Translations under genes and position numbers: made by a program | Shown: positions 2,967 to 28,147 of the stretch, one piece after another | Numbering within the stretch: position 1 is the stretch's first letter | Layout of the letters: every line of letters begins with the position of its first letter | The notes under the pieces: model-generated | Databases searched by the model: none | The model's input: only the letters and a program-made list of their open reading frames with translations | What the model was told of the DNA's origin: nothing | Assembly: GCA_036446195.1 (NCBI GenBank) | Contig: JAZFSN010000051.1 | Coordinates: 1-40,547 of the forward strand | Source of the DNA: Thermodesulfovibrionia bacterium | Lineage (GTDB): Bacteria; Nitrospirota; Thermodesulfovibrionia; UBA6902; BMS3Bbin08 | DNA: 40,547 nt | Reading direction: 5' to 3'

Positions 2967-3266
2967 TTGCCCAGATCTCTAAAAAAAGGACCGTACGTAG
3001 ATGCAAAGCTTGCTAAACGGATTCAAATAATGAATGAGTCCGGGGGGAAGAGGATTCTTAAAACATGGGCAAGGAGATCTACAATAGTTCCAGAATTTAT
3101 AGGACATACCTTTGCAGTGCATAATGGCAGGAAATTTATTCCTGTTTATATAACTGAGAATATGGTTGGCCACAAGCTGGGAGAATTTTCACCAACAAGG
3201 ACATTCAAGGCACATTCGGGCACTAAAAAGACAGGGGTATCAACTCCGGCTAAAGGGCAAAAATAA
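2967..3266 (+). CDS. rpsS: 30S ribosomal protein S19
   Basis: [11 protein letters not shown]..., [29 protein letters not shown]; TTG start after AGGAG. Confidence 0.96.
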
Positions 3267-7407: not shown

Positions 7408-7950
7408 ATGTCAAGGATTGGACAAAAACCAGTAAATATACCTAAGGGAGTAGATGTCAAAATTAATGGCGGCATAATTACTGTTAAAGGTTCAAAAGGC
7501 GAGCTTAAATGGGATTTTCCACCTGATTTAAAGGTTTCTATTCAGAATGAAGTCCTTATAGTGGAGAGACCTTCTGATATAGTAAAATTGAAGGCCTTAC
7601 ACGGTTTAACCAGGAATATTATCTCGAACATGGTTGACGGTGTAACCAATGGATATCAAAGAGTCCTTGAGATTTCTGGAGTAGGCTACAAGGCTCAGGT
7701 TCAGGGTAGGAAAATGGTCTTGGCTCTTGGATATTCTTATCCTGTTAAATTTCAACTTCCCGAGGGCATAACTGCGGAGGTTGATTCAAAACAGACCAAT
7801 ATAACCCTTAAGGGAATAGATAAACAGTTAATCGGGCAGGTTGCAGCAGACCTAAGGTCATTGAGACCGCCTGACGCTTATAAAAGAAAGGGCATTCGAT
7901 ATGCCGGCGAGAAAGTTAAACTAAAGGCGGGCAAGGCGGGGAAAAAATAG
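7408..7950 (+). CDS. rplF: 50S ribosomal protein L6
   Basis: Start at MSRIGQKPVNIPKGV after GGGAG SD; the ORF-track start 7387 lies inside a repeat. Confidence 0.95.
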   Translation: MSRIGQKPVNIPKGVDVKINGGIITVKGSKGELKWDFPPDLKVSIQNEVLIVERPSDIVKLKALHGLTRNIISNMVDGVTNGYQRVLEISGVGYKAQVQGRKMVLALGYSYPVKFQLPEGITAEVDSKQTNITLKGIDKQLIGQVAADLRSLRPPDAYKRKGIRYAGEKVKLKAGKAGKK

Positions 7951-8065
7951 CAAATAGCTATTAGCAATAAACTTAACCGGAAGCTAATTGCTTTGCTGGC
8001 TGGTTAGTTGACGAATTGTATACACTAAGTGATTCTGCGATCCATTGGGTGTAAAGGGGGAAAAA

Positions 8066-8428
8066 TTGAGAGGCAGTAAGCAAGAGGCTAAACACAGACG
8101 CCATGAAAGGATTAGAAATAAAATTTATGGTACGTCTGAAAGACCGAGGCTAAATGTATTTAAAAGCCTCAAACACATATATGCTCAGATAATAGATGAT
8201 TCATCGGGCAATACTATTGTTTCTGCTGCCAGCATCGATAAGGAACTCAGGGAAAAGCTTAATAAGGGAGGGAATATCGAAGCAGCGGGAAGAGTGGGAG
8301 ATTTAGTTGCTCTAAGGGCTATAGGTAAGGGGATTAAAAAAGTAGCATTTGATAGAGGAGGATACCTTTACCACGGGAGAATAAAAAAACTTGCTGACGC
8401 AGCAAGAGGGGCAGGACTTGAATTTTGA
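8066..8428 (+). CDS. rplR: 50S ribosomal protein L18
   Basis: [34 protein letters not shown]; likely TTG start 8066 after AAGGGGG (ORF track 8045); start uncertain. Confidence 0.92.
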
Positions 8429-8432
8429 GATT

Positions 8433-8467
8433 CTGATTTCACAGATTTAAAAAATCGGTGTAATCAG
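8433..8467 (+). repeat. CTGATTTCACAGATT-family hairpin (single)
   Basis: CTGATTTCACAGATT-TAAAA-AATCGGTGTAATCAG, 13/15 complementary; starts 4 nt after the rplR stop. Confidence 0.8.
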
Positions 8468-8472
8468 GTTTA

Positions 8473-8988
8473 ATGAATATTAAATCAGGAGGTTATGTGG
8501 GTAGAATTGATGCGGAAAGACTCAGTCTTAAAGATAAAGTCATATATATAAACAGGGTCGCCAAGGTTGTTAAAGGCGGCAGGCGTTTTTCGTTTAGTGC
8601 GCTTGTTGTGGTGGGCGATGGTGATGGGCATATAGGTTTTGGTAAAGGAAAGGCTAAGGAAGTCCCTGAGGCTATAAGAAAGGCGATTGAACATGCAAAG
8701 AGAAACCTTATGAAAGTCCCTGTAAAAGACGGCTCAATCCCTCATCAGATAACGGGCAGGTACGGTGCTGGAAGGGTGGTTATGAAACCTGCTCCTGAAG
8801 GAGTAGGTCTTATTGCAGGAGGTCCCGTAAGGGCTATAATGGAGGTTGTAGGTATACATAACATTGTTACCAAGTCTCTTGGCACTCACAATCCATTTAA
8901 TACCGTAAGGGCTACATTTGATGGATTTACCAAACTTAAAGACTCAGAAAGCGTTATGAAAAGGACAGGAAAGGCTGAGGAAGAATAG
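8473..8988 (+). CDS. rpsE: 30S ribosomal protein S5
   Basis: [46 protein letters not shown]; start uncertain (in-frame GTG 8497 follows AGGAGG). Confidence 0.94.
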
Positions 8989-12200: not shown

Positions 12201-12273
12201 TAAGATTAAGGCTGAGAAGAGAATTCTTATTTTTTCTTAACCTCAACCTCAACCTTATTCTAATGAGGTAGAT

Positions 12274-12387
12274 ATGAAAGTACGTTCATCAGTAAAACCT
12301 ATATGTACAAAATGCAAGATTATAAAAAGAAAAGGCGTGGTGAGAGTTGTTTGCAGTAACCCAAGACATAAACAGCGACAGGGATAA
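12274..12387 (+). CDS. rpmJ: 50S ribosomal protein L36 (zinc form)
   Basis: Not in ORF track (37 aa). Hand translation [37 protein letters not shown]; GAGG SD 6 nt upstream. Confidence 0.93.
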
Positions 12388-12391
12388 AAAA

Positions 12392-12419
12392 ACAGTTAAC
12401 AGTTAACAGTTAACAGTTA
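12392..12419 (+). repeat. Tandem heptamer (ACAGTTA)x4
   Basis: Four perfect head-to-tail copies; contains a reiterated GTTAAC palindrome; rpmJ-rpsM spacer. Confidence 0.9.
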
Positions 12420-12496
12420 AAAAATTATGAGTTAAAATACTTTCACATATCTTCACTTTTCACTTTCAGCTTTTAACTTTCTTTAAAGGAGATAGG

Positions 12497-12868
12497 ATGA
12501 GGATTGCAGGTGTTGACTTACCTAAAAATGAAAGGGTTGAAATAGGCCTTACGAGGATTTTTGGCATAGGAAAGCCTTGTTCCCAAAAGATACTTAGAGC
12601 AACGGGTGTAGACCCCGATAAAAAAGTTAAAACCCTGACCGATGATGAAGGCATAAAAATAAGGACTATTATTGATAGGGACTATAAGGTTGAAGGTGAT
12701 CTGAAACGCGAAATTTCCATGAACATAAAAAGAGTTATTGATATAGGTTCGTACATCGGGTATAGACATAAAGCTGGTTTGCCTGTAAGAGGGCAGAGGA
12801 CAAAAACAAATGCCAGAACCCGTAAAGGACCGAAAAGGGCTATTGCCTTTAAAAAGAAGGAGAGTTAA
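12497..12868 (+). CDS. rpsM: 30S ribosomal protein S13
   Basis: [25 protein letters not shown]..., [18 protein letters not shown]. Confidence 0.97.
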
Positions 12869-13254
12869 TGGCACAGAGAGGAAAAGGAGGCAAAAAGGAA
12901 AAAAAAGTTGTACATGTAGGGGCAGCCTATATTCAGGCTACATTTAATAATACGATAATCACAATTACGGACCCCAACGGCAATGTAGTTACATGGTCCT
13001 CGGCAGGTGTCCAGGGCTTTAAGGGTTCGAGAAAAGGCACACCATATGCTGCTCAGATAGCAGCACATGCAGCCGCTAAAAAGGCGATGGATTTTGGGAT
13101 GAGACAGATAGATGTTTTTATAAAGGGTCCTGGCGCGGGAAGGGAATCTGCTATAAGGGCACTTCAGGCAGCAGGACTTGAGATAAAACGTATAAAAGAT
13201 ATAACTCCTGTTCCGCATAACGGCTGCAAACCTCCCAAGAGGAGGAGGGTGTAA
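12868..13254 (+). CDS. rpsK: 30S ribosomal protein S11
   Basis: [30 protein letters not shown]..., [13 protein letters not shown]. Confidence 0.97.
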
Positions 13255-22150: not shown

Positions 22151-23713
22151 TCAGGTTAAATCGTTCTCTGCCATTTCTATTGCTTTAAACATTCCTTTTG
22201 CCTTGTTGATGGTTTCCATGTATTCTTTCTCAGGGTCTGAATCAGCAACTATTCCTGCTCCTGCCTGTATATAGGCTGTTTGTTTTTTCAGACCCGTCTG
22301 ATCCGCCGAGGCGGAAAAAATAATGGTTCTAATGGTAATACACATATCCATATTACCAGAGAAATCAAAATAACCTACACATCCGGCATAAGGCCCTCTC
22401 TTGGTTGGCTCCAGTTCTTCAATAATCTCCATAGCCCGTATCTTTGGGGCGCCTGTCACCGTGCCTGCCGGGAATGACGCCCTGAGCAAATCAAATGCGT
22501 CCCTGCCATTTTCAAGTTTTCCAATAACATTAGATGCAAGGTGCATGACATGAGAATATCTTTCAACAGTCATCAACTCGGTAACTTCAACAGTGCCTGT
22601 GGCTGCTACCCTTCCCAGGTCATTTCTGCCCAGGTCAACGAGCATAATATGCTCTGCCATTTCCTTGGGATCTGCCTTCAGCTCTTTTTCGAGTTCCAGG
22701 TCTTTTTCAACGGTATCTCCTCTTTTTCTTGTTCCCGCAATTGGTCTCAGCTCTGTAATATCACCTTCGAGCCTGACCAGTATTTCAGGGGAAGATCCTA
22801 CAAGCGTGTTTTTACCGGTCTCAAGGTAGAACATGTAAGGCGATGGGTTTATGATACGAAGTGCCCGGTAGGCATTTATCGGATGAATATCTGTCTCTCT
22901 TTGAAAATTTTGAGATATTACCGTCTGAATTACATCTCCTGACTTTACATATTCTTTTATCTTCCTGACTGCCTTCAGGAAGTCGTTTTTAGAAAAATTA
23001 GACAGGAAATTATTCTCTAAACTGGGGACAAAAGGCTTTTTTGTCATAGTCGGCTTATGACGGGATGATGCAATTGAACTCTTGGGAAGTACAATTTTTG
23101 ATTTAAGCTTTTTGACTATGACGTCAATTTTTTCCAGAGCCTTATCATAAGCTGTTTTTGGATCAGCTTCTATGTGAGCATTTGAGATTACTTTAATCTT
23201 TTGGGTCAGGTTATCAAATACAAGTAATGTATCGGTAAGCATGAAAAATATATCAGGCAGATTTAATTTGGCGAGATGATTATCCGGCAATTTTTCAAAA
23301 AAGCGTACAGTATCATATCCGATATAACCGACAAAACCGCCAAAGAACCTAGGAAGTCCGGGCATTATAACAGGCTTATATTTTTTTATTTCTGCTGATA
23401 TAATTTCAAGTGGGTCTCGATATCGAGCGATACCTGCTTTGTCAAATCTGATTTTCTCTTTTTGTGTTCCCCGCTTAACTGTAAGGGTGTTACCGTTCCC
23501 TTCTATTGTCAGTGAGGGATTGCTTCCGATAAATGAATACCTTGCCCATTTTTCTCCTCCCTCAACGCTTTCAAAGAGGAACCCTGTTTTTCCCTTTAGT
23601 TTAATAAATGCTGAAAGAGGAGTCTCAAGGTCTGCAAGGATCTCTTTATAGACAGGGATAAGGTTGCCTTGTTTAGTTTTCTCTTTAAATTCTTGAAAAT
23701 CAGGGTAGAACAT
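22151..23713 (-). CDS. trpE: Anthranilate synthase component I
   Basis: LFESVEGGEKWARYSFIG, GAPKIRAMEIIEELE, GAGIVADSDPEKEY; start uncertain: MFYPDF (23713) preferred, MKK (23737) or GTG (23779) possible. Confidence 0.93.
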   Translation of the reverse strand: MFYPDFQEFKEKTKQGNLIPVYKEILADLETPLSAFIKLKGKTGFLFESVEGGEKWARYSFIGSNPSLTIEGNGNTLTVKRGTQKEKIRFDKAGIARYRDPLEIISAEIKKYKPVIMPGLPRFFGGFVGYIGYDTVRFFEKLPDNHLAKLNLPDIFFMLTDTLLVFDNLTQKIKVISNAHIEADPKTAYDKALEKIDVIVKKLKSKIVLPKSSIASSRHKPTMTKKPFVPSLENNFLSNFSKNDFLKAVRKIKEYVKSGDVIQTVISQNFQRETDIHPINAYRALRIINPSPYMFYLETGKNTLVGSSPEILVRLEGDITELRPIAGTRKRGDTVEKDLELEKELKADPKEMAEHIMLVDLGRNDLGRVAATGTVEVTELMTVERYSHVMHLASNVIGKLENGRDAFDLLRASFPAGTVTGAPKIRAMEIIEELEPTKRGPYAGCVGYFDFSGNMDMCITIRTIIFSASADQTGLKKQTAYIQAGAGIVADSDPEKEYMETINKAKGMFKAIEMAENDLT

Positions 23714-23933
23714 TTGACAAAACCCGCTTTTTTTCATTACTATTTTAAAGTATAGGCGTATCCTAATACTTGATTGCACCGATTAAAATAAGATTACACA
23801 GATAGTGCGTGAGCGAAGCGTTCGCCTATCTTGAATGTCTATTATAGACTATTGATAGCTTAAAGTTAAGTTTTAAAGAAGAAGTTTTTTCTTTGAGTCT
23901 TTGAATTTAGCTGATAACTGATAACTATTTAAT

Positions 23934-24009
23934 GCGGGTGTAGCTCAGCTGGTAGAGCACAACCTTGACAAGGTTGGGGTCGCGGGTTCGAATCCCGTCG
24001 CCCGCTCCA
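23934..24009 (+). tRNA. tRNA-Val (anticodon GAC)
   Basis: Hand-folded cloverleaf: acceptor GCGGGTG/CGCCCGC, D arm GCTC..GAGC, anticodon arm CAACC-TTGACAA-GGTTG, T arm GCGGG-TTCGAAT-CCCGT, encoded CCA. Confidence 0.93.
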
Positions 24010-24017
24010 TATAAAGC

Positions 24018-24049
24018 AGTTATCAGGGGTCAGTTGTCAGTTGGCAGTG
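24018..24049 (+). repeat. Dispersed repeat CAGTTaTCAGGGGTCAGTTGTCAGT (direct copy) just 3' of tRNA-Val
   Basis: See 20308-20334. Confidence 0.75.
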
Positions 24050-24101
24050 AAAAATTAAACTGATTACTGATAACTGGTTACTGTTTTTAAATTCCTCCTC
24101 A

Positions 24102-24132
24102 ATTCTGCTAAGCAGAATCTTTGTTGTTTTGC
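24102..24132 (+). terminator. Possible intrinsic terminator after tRNA-Val
   Basis: ATTCTGC-TAA-GCAGAAT 7-bp stem followed by the T-rich CTTTGTTGTTTTGC; stem is AT-rich, so weak. Confidence 0.35.
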
Positions 24133-24230
24133 TCGGCTTTTTCTCATCCTTTTTATTTAAACCCCAATTAAGCGATTCTTAATCTGTCATTTCGGTTCCC
24201 GTTCTCCGTAGCACTGCGAAGGATGAATGT

Positions 24231-24273
24231 CCGGTCGGAGCGACTCTTCGCGGAGACTCGCTTCGAGAATCTC
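24231..24273 (+). repeat. Dispersed repeat family B copy
   Basis: CCGGTCGGAGCGACTCTTCGCGGAGACTCGCTTCGAGAATCTC; related to 1085-1140 and, inverted, to 27497-27547. Confidence 0.7.
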
Positions 24274-24320
24274 TCTTCTATGCCACCCGTCACTGAATGG
24301 TTCACCTTTTAACAATAGTA

Positions 24321-24376
24321 TTGACAGACCTAAAACAGTATGGTATATAGATGTTTTACTAAGGCTTTTGTATAAT
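24321..24376 (+). promoter_or_regulatory. Tandem sigma70-like promoters upstream of the DUF5678-like/retropepsin pair
   Basis: TTGACA (24321-24326), 17 nt, TATATA (24344-24349); second perfect TATAAT at 24371-24376 preceded by TG; ATG at 24396. Confidence 0.5.
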
Positions 24377-24395
24377 AGAATTAAGTGATAATCCC

Positions 24396-24635
24396 ATGAC
24401 CAATCTGGAAAAAGAGTTCCAATATTACGTAGACCACCAAGAAGAACTCGTCCGCCAGCATAATGGAAAATTCATCGTTATCAAAGGGCAGGAGATAATA
24501 GGCGTGTATGATTCCGAAATGGAAGCTATTGAAAAAACCTCGGCAGAGCATGAACTCGGAACGTTCCTTATTCAGAAGTGCGAACCGGGAAGCGAAAGCT
24601 ACACGCAGACATATCATTCCAGGGTTGCCTTCTAA
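24396..24635 (+). CDS. Small conserved-looking protein, DUF5678-like (79 aa)
   Basis: Pattern HNGKFIVIKGQEIIGVYDSEMEAIEKT...GTFLIQKC resembles DUF5678-type small proteins (recognised from memory, unverified); own promoters; stop abuts next ATG. Confidence 0.7.
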   Translation: MTNLEKEFQYYVDHQEELVRQHNGKFIVIKGQEIIGVYDSEMEAIEKTSAEHELGTFLIQKCEPGSESYTQTYHSRVAF

Positions 24636-25217
24636 ATGCCCCCCCCTATAAATGTTCACAGCTTCACAACCGAACATAATGGTATTGCCAATGTATTAAA
24701 ATCATTGGTTAATATATCTCTGGGATTTGACCCCAAAGCAATATCAGTACGACCTTCGCCGAAAGAATACACCGCCATCTGGGATACAGGCGCAACCAAC
24801 TCTGTCATTACGAAAAAGGTAGTACAGGAATGCGGGCTGAAACCAATTAGCATGGTACAGGTTAATCATGCTGGCGGTACTACAGTGCAACCCGTTTATC
24901 TTGTCAATATTTATCTTCCTAACAAGGTCGTTTTCTATCATGTAAGAGCTACTGAAGGTGATATAAAAGGCAGTGATGTGCTTGTGGGGATGGATATTAT
25001 CAACAAAGGGGATTTTGTAGTAACAAACAAAGATGGGAAGACAGTGTTTTCATTCAGGTGTCCATCTATTGAGCGAATTGATTTTGTAAAGCAACGACCG
25101 TCCGGGTCTTCTTCCACCACACCATTTCCCCCCTCAGGTAAGAAAATCGGCAGGAATGACCCCTGCAAGTGCGGAAGCGGGAAGAAGTATAAAAAGTGCT
25201 GCGGCAGAGGGGGATAA
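24636..25217 (+). CDS. Retropepsin-like aspartic protease with C-terminal SEC-C zinc motif
   Basis: AIWDTGATNSVI (D-T-G-A catalytic loop, Asp50), VLVGMDIINKGDF, Ser/Pro linker, C-terminal GRNDPCKCGSGKKYKKCCG. Confidence 0.8.
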   Translation: MPPPINVHSFTTEHNGIANVLKSLVNISLGFDPKAISVRPSPKEYTAIWDTGATNSVITKKVVQECGLKPISMVQVNHAGGTTVQPVYLVNIYLPNKVVFYHVRATEGDIKGSDVLVGMDIINKGDFVVTNKDGKTVFSFRCPSIERIDFVKQRPSGSSSTTPFPPSGKKIGRNDPCKCGSGKKYKKCCGRGG

Positions 25218-25273
25218 ACTTCTTTTATCTAGAAAAAGTAGAAAAAGGTAGAAAAAGGGGTCAGACTTAATTA

Positions 25274-25302
25274 TTGACATTTAATAAAATTCTTGCTATT
25301 TT
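25274..25302 (+). promoter_or_regulatory. Sigma70-like promoter inside the left IR of the Y1/HUH unit (would give a near-leaderless mRNA)
   Basis: TTGACA (25274-25279), 17 nt, TATTTT (25297-25302); ATG at 25309, no SD. Confidence 0.4.
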
Positions 25303-25308
25303 TTATGC

Positions 25309-26262
25309 ATGGCACGAAAACCGAGGATAGAGTTTGAGGGAGCGTTTTATCACGTAATAGTCAGGGGCAATCAGAAACAAAAGATATTTAAAGATAATCA
25401 CGATTTTCTACAATACCAGCAAATAATAAACGCCTACAAGGCGAACTACCATTATTATCTTTATTCATATGTCCTTATGAGTAATCATATACACCTGCTT
25501 ATCGAAACAAGAGACACCCCTTTATCAAAAATAATGCAGGGAATCAACCAGCGTTATACAATGTATTTCAACAGAAAATATAAAACAGTTGGGCATCTTT
25601 TTCAGGGTAGATACAAAGCCATTCTTTGTGATAGGAACGCTTATCTATTAACGCTGATTAAATACATACACATGAATCCAGTAAGGGCAAAGATTGCAGA
25701 AAGTATCAGCAAATATCAATGGAGCAGTCATCATGAATATATAAAAAAGAGGAAGAAAAAAGGAATCATTGATGTAGACCAGGTATTGAGGATGTTTTCA
25801 GAAGACAAATCAGCAGCCAGAAAACTATACCGGACTTATATGGGTGATGAAATATCTGTAAAGAAGGAAGATATTTACAGGACTGTAGATCAACGGATAT
25901 TGGGAACAGAGCAGTTTGTAGAGGACGTAATGGAAAGACACGATGTGGAGTTGTCTCAAGAAAGGAAAGCAAGAGAATATTCAATGGCAGAGATAGCAAA
26001 GGCAGTAGAGAAGGTTATGGGCATAAAGTTAAAACAGATTCGTCAAAAAAGTAAATTGAGAGAAATATCCAGGGGGAGACAAATAATATCTATAGTTTCC
26101 GGAGAGTACGGGTATAAGGGCAAAGAGATATCTGAGTTTATACATAAAGATGCAGCAATGATAACGAGATATATGAAAGAAAAGGGAAAGTTAAAGGAAG
26201 AAGTAAAAAATGTAATTGAAATGATGAAAAAAGAACGTAATAATGTCAATAGTCAAGTCTGA
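25309..26262 (+). CDS. Y1 HUH transposase-like protein (IS200/RayT, COG1943-type) fused to DnaA-C-like HTH
   Basis: FYHVIVRGN, HUH motif SNHIHLLIE, catalytic Tyr in LFQGRYKAIL; C-terminal KSKLREISRGRQIISIVSGEYGYKGKEISEFIHKDAAMITRYM resembles DnaA domain IV. Confidence 0.85.
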   Translation: MARKPRIEFEGAFYHVIVRGNQKQKIFKDNHDFLQYQQIINAYKANYHYYLYSYVLMSNHIHLLIETRDTPLSKIMQGINQRYTMYFNRKYKTVGHLFQGRYKAILCDRNAYLLTLIKYIHMNPVRAKIAESISKYQWSSHHEYIKKRKKKGIIDVDQVLRMFSEDKSAARKLYRTYMGDEISVKKEDIYRTVDQRILGTEQFVEDVMERHDVELSQERKAREYSMAEIAKAVEKVMGIKLKQIRQKSKLREISRGRQIISIVSGEYGYKGKEISEFIHKDAAMITRYMKEKGKLKEEVKNVIEMMKKERNNVNSQV

Positions 26263-26279
26263 CCCCATACCACTGATTC

Positions 26280-26654
26280 CTAAACCATTATCTCTACCAG
26301 TATCTTTTCATAGTCAACAACTGGTCTGGTTTTTTTCCTGCCATTCTTTGTCTTTTTAATCTCAATCAAACCAAGTTCTGCAAGGTAATGGACATCGTCT
26401 GTAACATTCTTTGCATCCCTGTGTAAAATCTTTGCAAGCGCATAAATGGAATCAGGCTTATTTTTCTTAATTGTCTTCAATATCCTCAATCGTTCATCAG
26501 TTATGAACTTTCTCATTGTCTTTAAGGATTCAAAAGAGATAACTGATTGAGGCTTTACAGCCTTGCCTTTTGCCACTGCCTTCATTGCTTTCTTTGCTTC
26601 TGCTATAAACTCGTCTTCGCTCTGAATGTCTAATCTTACATTTTTAATCTTCAT
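26280..26654 (-). CDS. HTH DNA-binding protein, putative antitoxin (TumA/HVO_A0114-like)
   Basis: 124 aa; winged-helix-like KPDSIYALAKILHRDAKNVTDDVHYLAELGLIEI; 11-nt overlap with the upstream TumE-like ORF. Confidence 0.7.
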   Translation of the reverse strand: MKIKNVRLDIQSEDEFIAEAKKAMKAVAKGKAVKPQSVISFESLKTMRKFITDERLRILKTIKKNKPDSIYALAKILHRDAKNVTDDVHYLAELGLIEIKKTKNGRKKTRPVVDYEKILVEIMV

Positions 26655-26964
26655 GTCTAACTCTCCTTACGTCGTTTAAAAAATCCTCAAAGAGTTTGTC
26701 AATGCTTTTAAACTCATATGGATATACTTTGTCTTTATAATGCCTGTGGTCTCCTTTTCTTTCTGCATTGTCATAACCTATTATTCTTTTGCCTTCCCTT
26801 ATATAAACCAGTGAATACTTAAATCCATGCGGTTTATCATGTGTTTTGCTGACATGCCATGACCTAATTTCAACAATGTCTCCATTGGGATATACCCTCT
26901 TACGCATTATGAAAGGCTTTGCCTCCATATAGGTTATTATATGCCATGTATCAGCATAAAGCAA
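26644..26964 (-). CDS. TumE/DUF6516-family putative toxin
   Basis: IVEIRSWHV...PHGFKYSLVYIREGKRIIGYDNAERKGDHRHYKDKVYPYEF matches my recollection of the TumE family; start uncertain (TTG 26964 or ATG 26928). Confidence 0.65.
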   Translation of the reverse strand: MLYADTWHIITYMEAKPFIMRKRVYPNGDIVEIRSWHVSKTHDKPHGFKYSLVYIREGKRIIGYDNAERKGDHRHYKDKVYPYEFKSIDKLFEDFLNDVRRVRHED

Positions 26965-27232
26965 TAAAAAAGGTGCTTGAATAACCAGACCCCTTTTTCT
27001 CCCAGGTTCTACTAAAACACCTTAAAAAGTCCTGAAAAATGATAGAAATGGATTAGGTATGTAACAGGTTATAAGCCTTATAATTTAAATGTTTATACAG
27101 TTTGTTATAGAGTGGTATGTCTTTAAAATAATGGTTTATATCGTAAGTATATCAAAACAGGAAGGGAAGTAAAACTAAAGATGGATTCGTATAACCTTGC
27201 CTCAAACTGTATAGTTTTTGTATAGTAAAGAG

Positions 27233-27261
27233 TTGACAGTTAAAAGTTAAGAGTCTATAAA
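27233..27261 (+). promoter_or_regulatory. Sigma70-like promoter for tRNA-Cys
   Basis: TTGACA (27233-27238), 17 nt, TATAAA (27256-27261); tRNA begins at 27295. Confidence 0.45.
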
Positions 27262-27294
27262 TTCTCTTACTGTTCACAGATTACTGTAGTTATT

Positions 27295-27370
27295 GGCGGC
27301 GTACCCAAGTGGTTAAGGGGGAGGTCTGCAAAACCTTTATTCAGCGGTTCGAATCCGCTCGCCGCCTCCA
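27295..27370 (+). tRNA. tRNA-Cys (anticodon GCA)
   Basis: Acceptor GGCGGCG/CGCCGCC, anticodon arm GAGGT-CTGCAAA-ACCTT, T arm AGCGG-TTCGAAT-CCGCT, discriminator U then CCA. Confidence 0.92.
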
Positions 27371-27496
27371 AATGACAAATCTTGGGAAAGGGTTCAAGGG
27401 GTCAGGCCCCCCTGCTTTCTTGCGAAAGCAAGAAGGGGGGCAGGGATACAAGTGATAGAATTAATTTTTTTAAATTTTATCTTCACTGTAACCCTA

Positions 27497-27547
27497 GAAT
27501 CTTGAAGCGAGTCCCGAAGCGGGTCTCCGCAAAGGGTCGCTTCGACC
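27497..27547 (-). repeat. Dispersed repeat family B copy (inverted orientation)
   Basis: Reverse complement reads GGTCGAAGCGACCCTTTGCGGAGACCCGCTTCGGGACTCGCTTCAAGATTC, aligning block-wise with 24231-24273. Confidence 0.65.
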
Positions 27548-27574
27548 TTGTAACCTCTCTTTTTAATAACTGCA

Positions 27575-28147
27575 ATGAAGATAATCGCATTTTTGGGAAG
27601 TCCAAGAAGGGAAGGGAATACAGAACTTCTTTTAAGAGAAGTAATTAGAGGGGTCGAAGATTGTGGTTCAGACGTTAAGGTCTTTGATCTGAACTCTATG
27701 AATATTCAGCCCTGTCAGGACTGTGGAGAGTGTGATGAAACAGGTGAATGTATTATACATGATGAGATGGATGAGGTGTATGAAGCAATAAGAACTGCTG
27801 ATAGAATTATACTCGCATCACCAATATTCTTTTTTGCCCTGAGCGCTCAAACAAAGGCTATGATAGACAGATGCCAGAGTTTCTGGTGTGAGAAGTATGT
27901 TTTAAAGAAACCTGTTCCTGATGGCGAATTTGGAAGAAAAGGGCTGTTACTGCTTGTTGGCGGAATGAAAAAAGAAGTAGGGGTTCAATGCTCAGAATCA
28001 TGTTCAAAAGCTTTTTTCAGAACGGTAAACGTACCCGAACACCGTACATTGAGCTTTCTTGGCATTAATAAGAAAGGCGAAATTTTGCAACATCCAACTG
28101 CACTTAAAGAGGCATACGAAGAGGGCAAAAAACTGGTAGCTTTTTAA
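27575..28147 (+). CDS. Iron-sulfur flavoprotein (Isf-like, NADPH-dependent FMN reductase/flavodoxin fold)
   Basis: MKIIAFLGSPRREGNTELL; compact Cys cluster CQDCGECDETGEC (CX2CX2CX5C); ILASPIFFFALSAQTKAMIDR. Confidence 0.8.
   Translation: MKIIAFLGSPRREGNTELLLREVIRGVEDCGSDVKVFDLNSMNIQPCQDCGECDETGECIIHDEMDEVYEAIRTADRIILASPIFFFALSAQTKAMIDRCQSFWCEKYVLKKPVPDGEFGRKGLLLLVGGMKKEVGVQCSESCSKAFFRTVNVPEHRTLSFLGINKKGEILQHPTALKEAYEEGKKLVAF

Follow-up and report, generated by a model that had tools for sequence, protein, structure and literature searches.

Which function is served by two small genes that stand head to tail without a single base between them? The pair lies on the forward strand of a stretch of 40,547 nucleotides (nt), referred to here as the window, from a metagenome-assembled genome of the Thermodesulfovibrionia (Nitrospirota). 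The first gene, open reading frame 1 (ORF1; 24396-24635, 79 amino acids), begins with ATG and ends with a TAA stop codon at 24633-24635, to which the ATG of ORF2 (24636-25217, 193 amino acids) is directly joined at 24636. This zero gap is read from the sequence and agrees with a preliminary description of the locus. ORF1 encodes a small acidic protein, ORF2 a predicted retropepsin-like aspartic protease with a SEC-C domain at its C-terminus. The preliminary description knew of no function for this combination, and no published description of the ORF1-ORF2 pair was found in our full-text literature searches either. Judging from sequence comparisons, we see an about even chance that the cassette is a type II toxin-antitoxin-like or abortive-infection module, in which the protease would be the effector, ORF1 its inhibitor and the tail of ORF2 a docking element for the ribosome.

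The adjacency of the two genes was evaluated in a protease-centred sample of 160 loci, consisting of 80 genomes from many phyla and 80 viral contigs. The cellular part comprises the best 80 of at least 521 protease relatives in 185,579 species genomes (one genome per species), the viral part the best 80 of 222 protease relatives on IMG/VR viral contigs. An ORF1 homologue is located directly upstream on the same strand in each of these loci (160/160). Hence the adjacency is not due to chance, and the two families are indeed recurrent neighbours, a point on which the preliminary description had asked for a check. The junction is either an overlap or a short gap, with modes at -8, -4, -1 and 0 to +12, in line with the compact, translationally coupled layout assumed from the window. 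The cellular loci are patchily spread over more than 15 phyla, including Chloroflexota, Desulfobacterota, Planctomycetota, Nitrospinota, Nitrospirota, Bacteroidota, Verrucomicrobiota, Acidobacteriota, Spirochaetota, groups of the candidate phyla radiation (CPR) and a single archaeal bin. The pair is also present on Leptospira LE1-like phage records. Pairwise identities of ORF1 and ORF2 are correlated across loci (r=0.48). Any notion of the pair as something rare has to be given up, as it belongs to a very large family. ORF2 yields 5970 matches at 90% clustering, of ~190 amino acids and with the same architecture. Relatives of ORF1 fall into 2015 clusters at 50% identity and are almost all stand-alone proteins of ~80 amino acids with the same terminal tail.

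The cassette is a self-contained and horizontally mobile unit of ~0.9 kb that occurs among many phyla and temperate phages. A contig from a related strain (L178) shares a block of 910 bp with the window at 95.9% identity. This block reaches from 24321, the first base of the putative -35 hexamer, to 25230 and ends 13 bases past the ORF2 stop codon. The cassette adjoins tRNA-Val in both strains, with a surrounding islet that is rearranged in L178. There, the Y1-transposase gene is missing and the gap between tRNA and promoter is 67 nt long vs. 293 nt in the window.

The putative promoter and leader of the cassette (24321-24395, + strand) were read from the sequence by eye, except for an inverted repeat derived from a palindrome scan. 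A perfect -35 element TTGACA (24321-24326) is followed by a spacer of 17 nt and the hexamer TATATA (24344-24349), which is flanked on both sides by the arms of the 7-bp inverted repeat TAAAACA-N14-TGTTTTA. A second -10-like element further downstream, TATAAT at 24371-24376, is perfect as well and has no good -35 element. No obvious Shine-Dalgarno sequence was found in the leader. The strong promoter-like sequences of the preliminary description are thus borne out only in part: they can be seen by eye, but a consensus promoter scan reports neither site; TATATA breaks the rule of the scan for position 6.

The main reason why a toxin-antitoxin-like mechanism is favoured is an asymmetric decay of the two genes. 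To the protease-centred loci we compared an ORF1-centred sample of 14 viral loci (11 distinct) and 67 evaluable metagenome loci, 78 in all. ORF1 is intact with a missing or disrupted protease in 15/78 of these loci (5/11 viral, 10/67 metagenome). In contrast, a full-length adjacent ORF1 is missing in none of 159 loci with an intact protease. The difference is pronounced (Fisher p=2e-8, and p=1e-5 for the viral collection alone), albeit between two samples that were chosen differently, one centred on the protease and the other on ORF1. The protease gene is 2.4 times longer than ORF1, and length alone does not account for the asymmetry. With no intact protease found alone in these loci but ORF1 often persisting by itself, the pattern corresponds to what is expected if the product of the second gene does harm in the absence of the first.

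The individual cases of decay are diverse. In three viral loci (L166, L169, L170) an intact ORF1 at ~3000-3240 is followed by unrelated genes and no protease. A fourth one (L164) has kept the first ~25 protease codons and lost the rest, and in a fifth (L167) the protease is broken after ~80 residues. The ORF adjacent to the latter looks like a transposase by eye, so an insertion sequence may be involved. The metagenome loci show frameshifts in the protease (L191, L195, L210, L255), in-frame stop codons (L222, L223), truncations (L180, L241) or no protease at all (L227, L232). One and the same frameshift is shared by L191 and L195, which come from different samples, and this argues against an assembly error. 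Orphan antitoxins on phages are known as counter-defence genes. By analogy, the orphan ORF1 genes of L166, L169 and L170 could be such 'anti-toxin' genes.

The larger part of ORF2 (residues 1-155; 24636-25100, + strand) is a retropepsin-like aspartic protease domain according to Pfam, invariant columns and the AlphaFold model. Both gag-asp_proteas (38.2 bits, cut-off 28.2) and Asp_protease_2 (34.1 bits, cut-off 24.3) are matched above their cut-offs, as is SEC-C for the tail, so that the profile searches suggested for ORF2 gave a positive result throughout. The core is preceded by an N-terminal beta-hairpin (residues 8-29) with an invariant F10 T11. Its key motifs are W49-D50-T-G-A-T and L116-x-G118-M-D120 (VLVGMDII), and further downstream a conserved T136-x-F-x-F-R-x-P-S-I-E-R-I-D-F150 motif is found. 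WDTGAT, GMD and four cysteines are invariant across the 26 ORF2 homologues aligned. In the set of unique proteases the DTGA loop, the conservation of which had been named as a test of the idea, is retained in 130/131 and GM[DN] in 128/131. This suggests that the family is under selection to stay an active enzyme.

The AlphaFold model of ORF2 (pLDDT 84) exhibits a single-lobe retropepsin fold. In Foldseek it comes closest to Rickettsia APRc (5c9f, E=4.6e-7), the proteases of FIV, EIAV and RSV, and Ddi1. APRc is the best structural match of all, at an identity to bacterial retropepsins of 10-14%. The retroviral-type, single-lobe core around Asp50, which had been recognised from the letters alone, is thereby confirmed at the level of both profile and fold. 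NCBIfam matches just the SEC-C tail in addition to weak, generic clan AA models; no model specific to the pair is found there. Retropepsins act as homodimers that form an active site with two Asp residues.

The protease core is followed by a flexible linker rich in Ser and Pro (residues 156-170; 25101-25145, + strand) with a low pLDDT (<50 for residues 158-166). Its mean pairwise identity of 13% is the lowest of all segments. The remaining residues 171-193 plus stop codon (25146-25217, + strand) form the SEC-C or SecA-like metal-binding domain, with a Pfam score of 35.2 bits at a cut-off of 20.4. The order of Ser/Pro linker and canonical SEC-C was thus described correctly beforehand. The tail reads I-G-R-N-D-P-C177-K-C179-G-S-G-K-K-Y-K-K-C188-C189-G and follows the pattern CxCx8CC (C177-x-C179-x8-C188-C189), of which the columns C, C, G-S-G, C and C are invariant in the 26 homologues. 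The family profile of the tail matches the solved chains 1sx0, 1ozb and 9l6b of SecA metal-binding domains and YchJ. SEC-C is not the only tail: ~83% of the proteases carry it, and in ~11% its place behind the variable linker is taken by a Lys/Arg-rich tail.

Many of the phyla that host the cassette are not known to possess SecB. As a polybasic tail can moreover replace SEC-C, we infer that the tail brings the protease to the ribosome or to a different polyanionic target, the ribosome being a more general partner than SecB. The analogy is drawn from metal-binding domains of the SecA type (SecA, AscA), which bind SecB and ribosomes (bioRxiv 10.1101/613315; 10.1101/2020.07.21.215244).

For ORF1 the assignment is less straightforward. 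The protein had been described as DUF5678-like, which is supported by the fold but does not reach the formal threshold by sequence: the score against Pfam DUF5678 (PF18929) is 20.8 bits (E=3.4e-4), below the curated cut-off of 23.2 bits. Some homologues exceed this cut-off (P0243 with 28.2 bits) and several carry a precomputed PF18929 label. The AlphaFold model (pLDDT 77) consists of a helical hairpin (residues 3-22), a beta-beta-alpha-beta core (26-61) and a C-terminal strand. It superposes on DUF5678 proteins of pandoraviruses in BFVD with a TM-score of 0.72-0.75, a root mean square deviation of ~2 A and E=1e-4. No significant match to solved structures in the PDB was obtained by fold, and none to PDB sequences by profile. 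The closest structural relatives in BFVD (A0A2U7UG46, S4VV29, A0A2U7UD66) thus all belong to pandoraviruses, giant viruses of amoebae, an unexpected distribution for such a small fold. P0243 (181 amino acids) combines two tandem ORF1-like domains in one protein. An N-terminal extension in P0312 was considered as HicB-like and dropped, given that Pfam offers no support.

The most conserved segment of ORF1 comprises its last 18 residues, with the family pattern C-E-P-G-x3-Y-T-Q-T-F/Y-H-S-R-V-x-F. It is an amphipathic strand at the very end of the protein (C62-E-P-G...Y69-T-Q-T-Y-H-S-R-V-A-F79 in the window). Despite this conservation, the tail has a pLDDT of only 41-64 in the model of the isolated chain. 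High conservation together with low model confidence is what would be expected of a segment that folds upon a partner. The two proteins also contrast in charge: ORF1 of the window is acidic (isoelectric point 4.9), and the family medians are 5.4 for ORF1 and 9.0 for ORF2. Moreover, the ORF1 tail is the same whether or not the paired protease ends in SEC-C. The most likely target of ORF1 is therefore the core of the protease and not its zinc tail. It had been proposed that the protease is either gated by its small partner or targeted by the zinc tail. The asymmetric decay points to the gating; as to the tail, SEC-C is dispensable.

From these elements a mechanism can be sketched. By analogy with retropepsins, ORF2 would homodimerise and thereby form an active site with two Asp residues, and the active dimer would cleave at least one essential protein of the cytoplasm. 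Its tether to the ribosome would be the basic C-terminal tail, which is SEC-C here and polybasic in the variants. Acidic ORF1 would bind the protease core and hold ORF2 inactive. Its amphipathic C-terminal strand would fold on binding; it might occupy the substrate cleft like a pseudosubstrate, or join the sheet at the dimer interface and so block dimerisation. By eye, the ORF1 tail (T-F-H-S-R) resembles the strand that closes the protease core (T-F-S-F-R), which is offered here as an idea. Loss, degradation or displacement of ORF1 would free the protease, with stress, an infecting phage or the disappearance of the element itself as possible triggers, and freed ORF2 would lead to growth arrest or death. 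In its fullest form the proposal is that the cassette represents the first toxin-antitoxin or abortive-infection family with an aspartic protease, namely a ribosome-docked dimeric retropepsin with a DUF5678 strand inhibitor, used by temperate phages to exclude competitors and countered by orphan ORF1. So much detail can be put forward only tentatively, and we would rather expect parts of it to fail.

Among the alternatives, a maturation pair of protease and substrate survives best, although we consider it unlikely. ORF2 would then cleave a conserved C- or N-terminal segment of ORF1, in a manner reminiscent of SpoIIGA and pro-sigma-E or of Gag and protease, and processed ORF1 would be the functional product. 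Some bacterial aspartic proteases do adjoin the gene of their substrate, e.g. in spoIIGA-sigE (SpoIIGA/pro-sigma-E). Furthermore ORF1 is conserved over its whole length including the exposed tail, which fits a protein with a cellular target of its own, and the persistence of orphan ORF1 on phage contigs means that it may act alone. Yet the decay pattern runs the other way. ORF1 without its protease should decay if it depended on processing but is intact in the 15 loci mentioned above, and a harmless protease should leave protease-only remnants, none of which occur in the 159 loci. There are no ORF1-protease fusion proteins among the best 150 ORF1 relatives, and the frame between the genes is not conserved, making a read-through polyprotein unlikely.

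The genomic surroundings bear on another alternative. No conserved third gene was found beside the pair and the flanks are heterogeneous. On viral contigs the neighbours include an integrase (13 loci from several lineages, in mixed orientation), an Ant anti-repressor (11), an endolysin (5), a CI-like repressor (4) and DNA methyltransferases. Temperate phages typically hold accessory cargo genes ('morons') in such positions. The frequent vicinity of integrase, Ant and CI-like repressor would also be compatible with a regulatory switch of mobile elements like ImmR/ImmA or DdrO/IrrE, with ORF1 as regulator and ORF2 as signal-activated protease controlling lysogeny or excision. One phage clade even shows the co-directional order ORF1-ORF2-int, comparable to immR-immA-int of ICEBs1, which is co-directional as well. 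We nevertheless regard such a switch as very unlikely. Orientation and distance of the integrase vary (convergent, divergent, co-directional) and most cellular pairs sit alone among housekeeping genes with no element around them. ORF1 is acidic without a match to a helix-turn-helix or another DNA-binding domain, and the cleavage of a repressor needs no tail that binds ribosomes or SecB.

Those housekeeping neighbours and the tail could instead speak for a non-selfish protease for processing or quality control at the ribosome, with ORF1 as adaptor or chaperone. RimB, a retropepsin-like protease, would be one model; it belongs to the RimABK ribosome-modification complex and acts in the modification of ribosomal proteins (PMC11957791). 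The other model is provided by SEC-C tails on ribosome-associated enzymes such as methionine aminopeptidase (10.1101/613315). The distribution makes this explanation highly improbable, too: at least 521 relatives are spread sporadically over the 185,579 species genomes without synteny, the pair is frequent on phage contigs, paralogous copies are found in one genome and the protease is often pseudogenised. Finally, a read-through polyprotein of the 'Gag-Pro' type was rejected, as both genes share a frame in the window but spacing and frame vary in the homologues.

Several observations speak against the toxin-antitoxin-like or abortive-infection module itself, in addition to the unequal choice of samples behind the asymmetry. 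The cassette was not found among the 72,556 plasmids of PLSDB. Classical addiction modules are common on plasmids, and this absence thus weighs against addiction. ORF1 is conserved equally to or more than the protease, which is atypical for an antitoxin. There is no Pfam match for a DNA-binding domain in the acidic ORF1, and inverted repeats upstream of ORF1 with arms of at least 8 bp occur in 11% of the loci vs. 6% of shuffled controls, a marginal excess. Autoregulation in the style of type II systems is therefore not evident. Inter-protein covariation (188 pairs) yields just I45-C66 clearly above the shuffled maximum, too weak a signal for mapping an interface. The cellular neighbours are mutually unrelated and mostly housekeeping genes with few restriction-modification genes. 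An enrichment of defence genes among the immediate genomic neighbours was judged unconvincing, with few restriction-modification or kinase matches of 122. The cellular loci show no consistent embedding in defence islands.

How does the cassette compare with known systems? It resembles type II toxin-antitoxin systems (phd-doc of prophage P1, relBE) in consisting of two small, co-directional and coupled genes with a putative promoter of their own. Small size, acidity and a conserved tail, probably disordered in the free protein, characterise the upstream partner, and the downstream partner is a basic enzyme. Further common features are the patchy horizontal spread, the carriage on prophages and islets, the paralogous copies and the frequent occurrence of orphan partners and decayed effectors, as opposed to an intact effector that is never seen alone. 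What sets the cassette apart is a presumed effector of the retropepsin-like aspartic protease type and an unusually conserved ORF1 in which no DNA-binding domain can be recognised; in addition, no plasmid copy was found in PLSDB. We know of no aspartic protease that has been validated as the effector of a toxin-antitoxin or phage-defence system, and our literature searches brought up none either.

With the bacterial retropepsins (APRc, Pseudomonas RimB and the peptidases of P. aeruginosa) ORF2 shares the single-lobe clan AA fold, the D-T-G-A motif and the second Gly motif. Rickettsia APRc is membrane-embedded, unlike ORF2, and the P. aeruginosa peptidases are described as secreted. None of these bacterial retropepsins is known to us to end in SEC-C, to depend on a DUF5678 partner gene or to be spread by phages. 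The tail itself is similar to the metal-binding domains of SecA, AscA (YecA) and YchJ in its CxCx8C(C/H) pattern and its G-S-G-K-K-Y/F-K core. As in SecA, it forms the very end of the chain and is preceded by a flexible linker. In contrast to all three, it is attached to a protease and interchangeable with a polybasic tail, which replaces it in ~15% of the family.

A distant link to phage defence is given by PADLOC. The PDC-M08B profile (~128 residues) is matched in the protease core by 20/26 ORF2 homologues with a best E=2.6e-7, and ORF2 of the window matches it weakly, in the core only (E=5e-4). No PDC-M08A profile matched any of 24 ORF1 homologues. A weak match restricted to the core without a match to PDC-M08A does not allow the cassette to be classified as PDC-M08. 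The similarity hints that a candidate phage-defence system contains a protease domain distantly related to that of ORF2. Lit of the E. coli element e14 is a zinc metalloprotease without a gene for an inhibitor partner; a phage peptide activates it, and it then cleaves EF-Tu. The likeness to the cassette is a functional analogy only, i.e. a protease on a prophage-like element whose activation would stop translation and abort phage infection; ORF2 is not related to Lit by sequence or fold. PHROGs contains no family for ORF1 or ORF2. Taken together, the parts are known (a clan AA retropepsin-like peptidase, a SEC-C domain and the DUF5678 fold), and the pair itself is widespread and uncharacterised.

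Some loci show deviations from the common arrangement. In the bacterium BMS3Abin10 (BDTC01000019.1, L082) two paralogous cassettes are located at 7761-8573 and 12255-13091, 4.5 kb apart and both with abutting stop codon and ATG. The same islet holds a phage-type integrase, an NTP_transf_2 nucleotidyltransferase, one gene with an FRG domain and one with ankyrin repeats. In a Bacteroidota locus (L025, 5996-6010) the protease frame has no ATG, GTG or TTG near the expected start after the ORF1 stop codon (TAA-TAT-TCA...). Apart from this, the frame is open and conserved; translation may begin at a non-canonical start or through termination-reinitiation. In another locus (L050, 4663-5196 and 5833-6126) a second, divergent protease core without SEC-C is found just downstream of the first cassette together with a second ORF1 match, which may represent a tandem duplication of the module.

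In the window, the cassette is part of an islet between tRNA-Val (23934-24009) and tRNA-Cys (27295-27370). An Rfam scan over 23700-27800 yielded these two tRNAs and nothing else. A Y1_Tnp (HUH) gene at 25309-26262 encodes 317 amino acids with an IS200-like Y1 transposase domain and a DnaA-C-type helix-turn-helix. It is followed on the minus strand by an HVO_A0114-family winged-helix gene (26280-26654), which overlaps a TumE toxin gene (26644-26964, minus strand) and forms with it a toxin-antitoxin pair of the islet in addition to the cassette. Pfam matches and the located tRNAs thus bear out the toxin-antitoxin pair, the HUH element and the tRNA setting that had been noticed around the cassette at first sight.

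The Y1 gene is flanked by inverted repeats of 25 nt (25257-25281 and 26242-26266, 92% complementary). In L178 the element is missing at this site, which suggests a recent insertion. The same strain has the HVO_A0114 gene at 97.5% identity and in rearranged order, and the ~290 nt between tRNA-Val and the cassette promoter (24029-24320) are missing there. An outer inverted pair of 26 nt (25237-25262 and 26988-27013, 85% complementary) encloses both the Y1 gene and the TumE pair. A GGGGTC/GACCCC core is common to this outer pair, the inner repeats and 24027-24035. A GC-rich repeat of ~35 nt at 24232-24272 has an inverted copy at 27515-27547 (88%) and a partial copy at 1084-1138. It has no match in Rfam and may be an intergenic repeat similar to REP elements.

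If the cassette is what we propose, it would bring a new effector chemistry to bacterial conflict systems and a first role for DUF5678, so far a domain of unknown function. SEC-C would then be a portable docking tag for the ribosome or SecB outside of the Sec pathway. A natural protein inhibitor of a retropepsin, be it a pseudosubstrate or a blocker of dimerisation, would be of interest to protease biochemists. With the pair present in hundreds of species (Chloroflexota to Bacteroidota and CPR) and on 222 viral contigs, knowledge of its function would annotate thousands of hypothetical genes.

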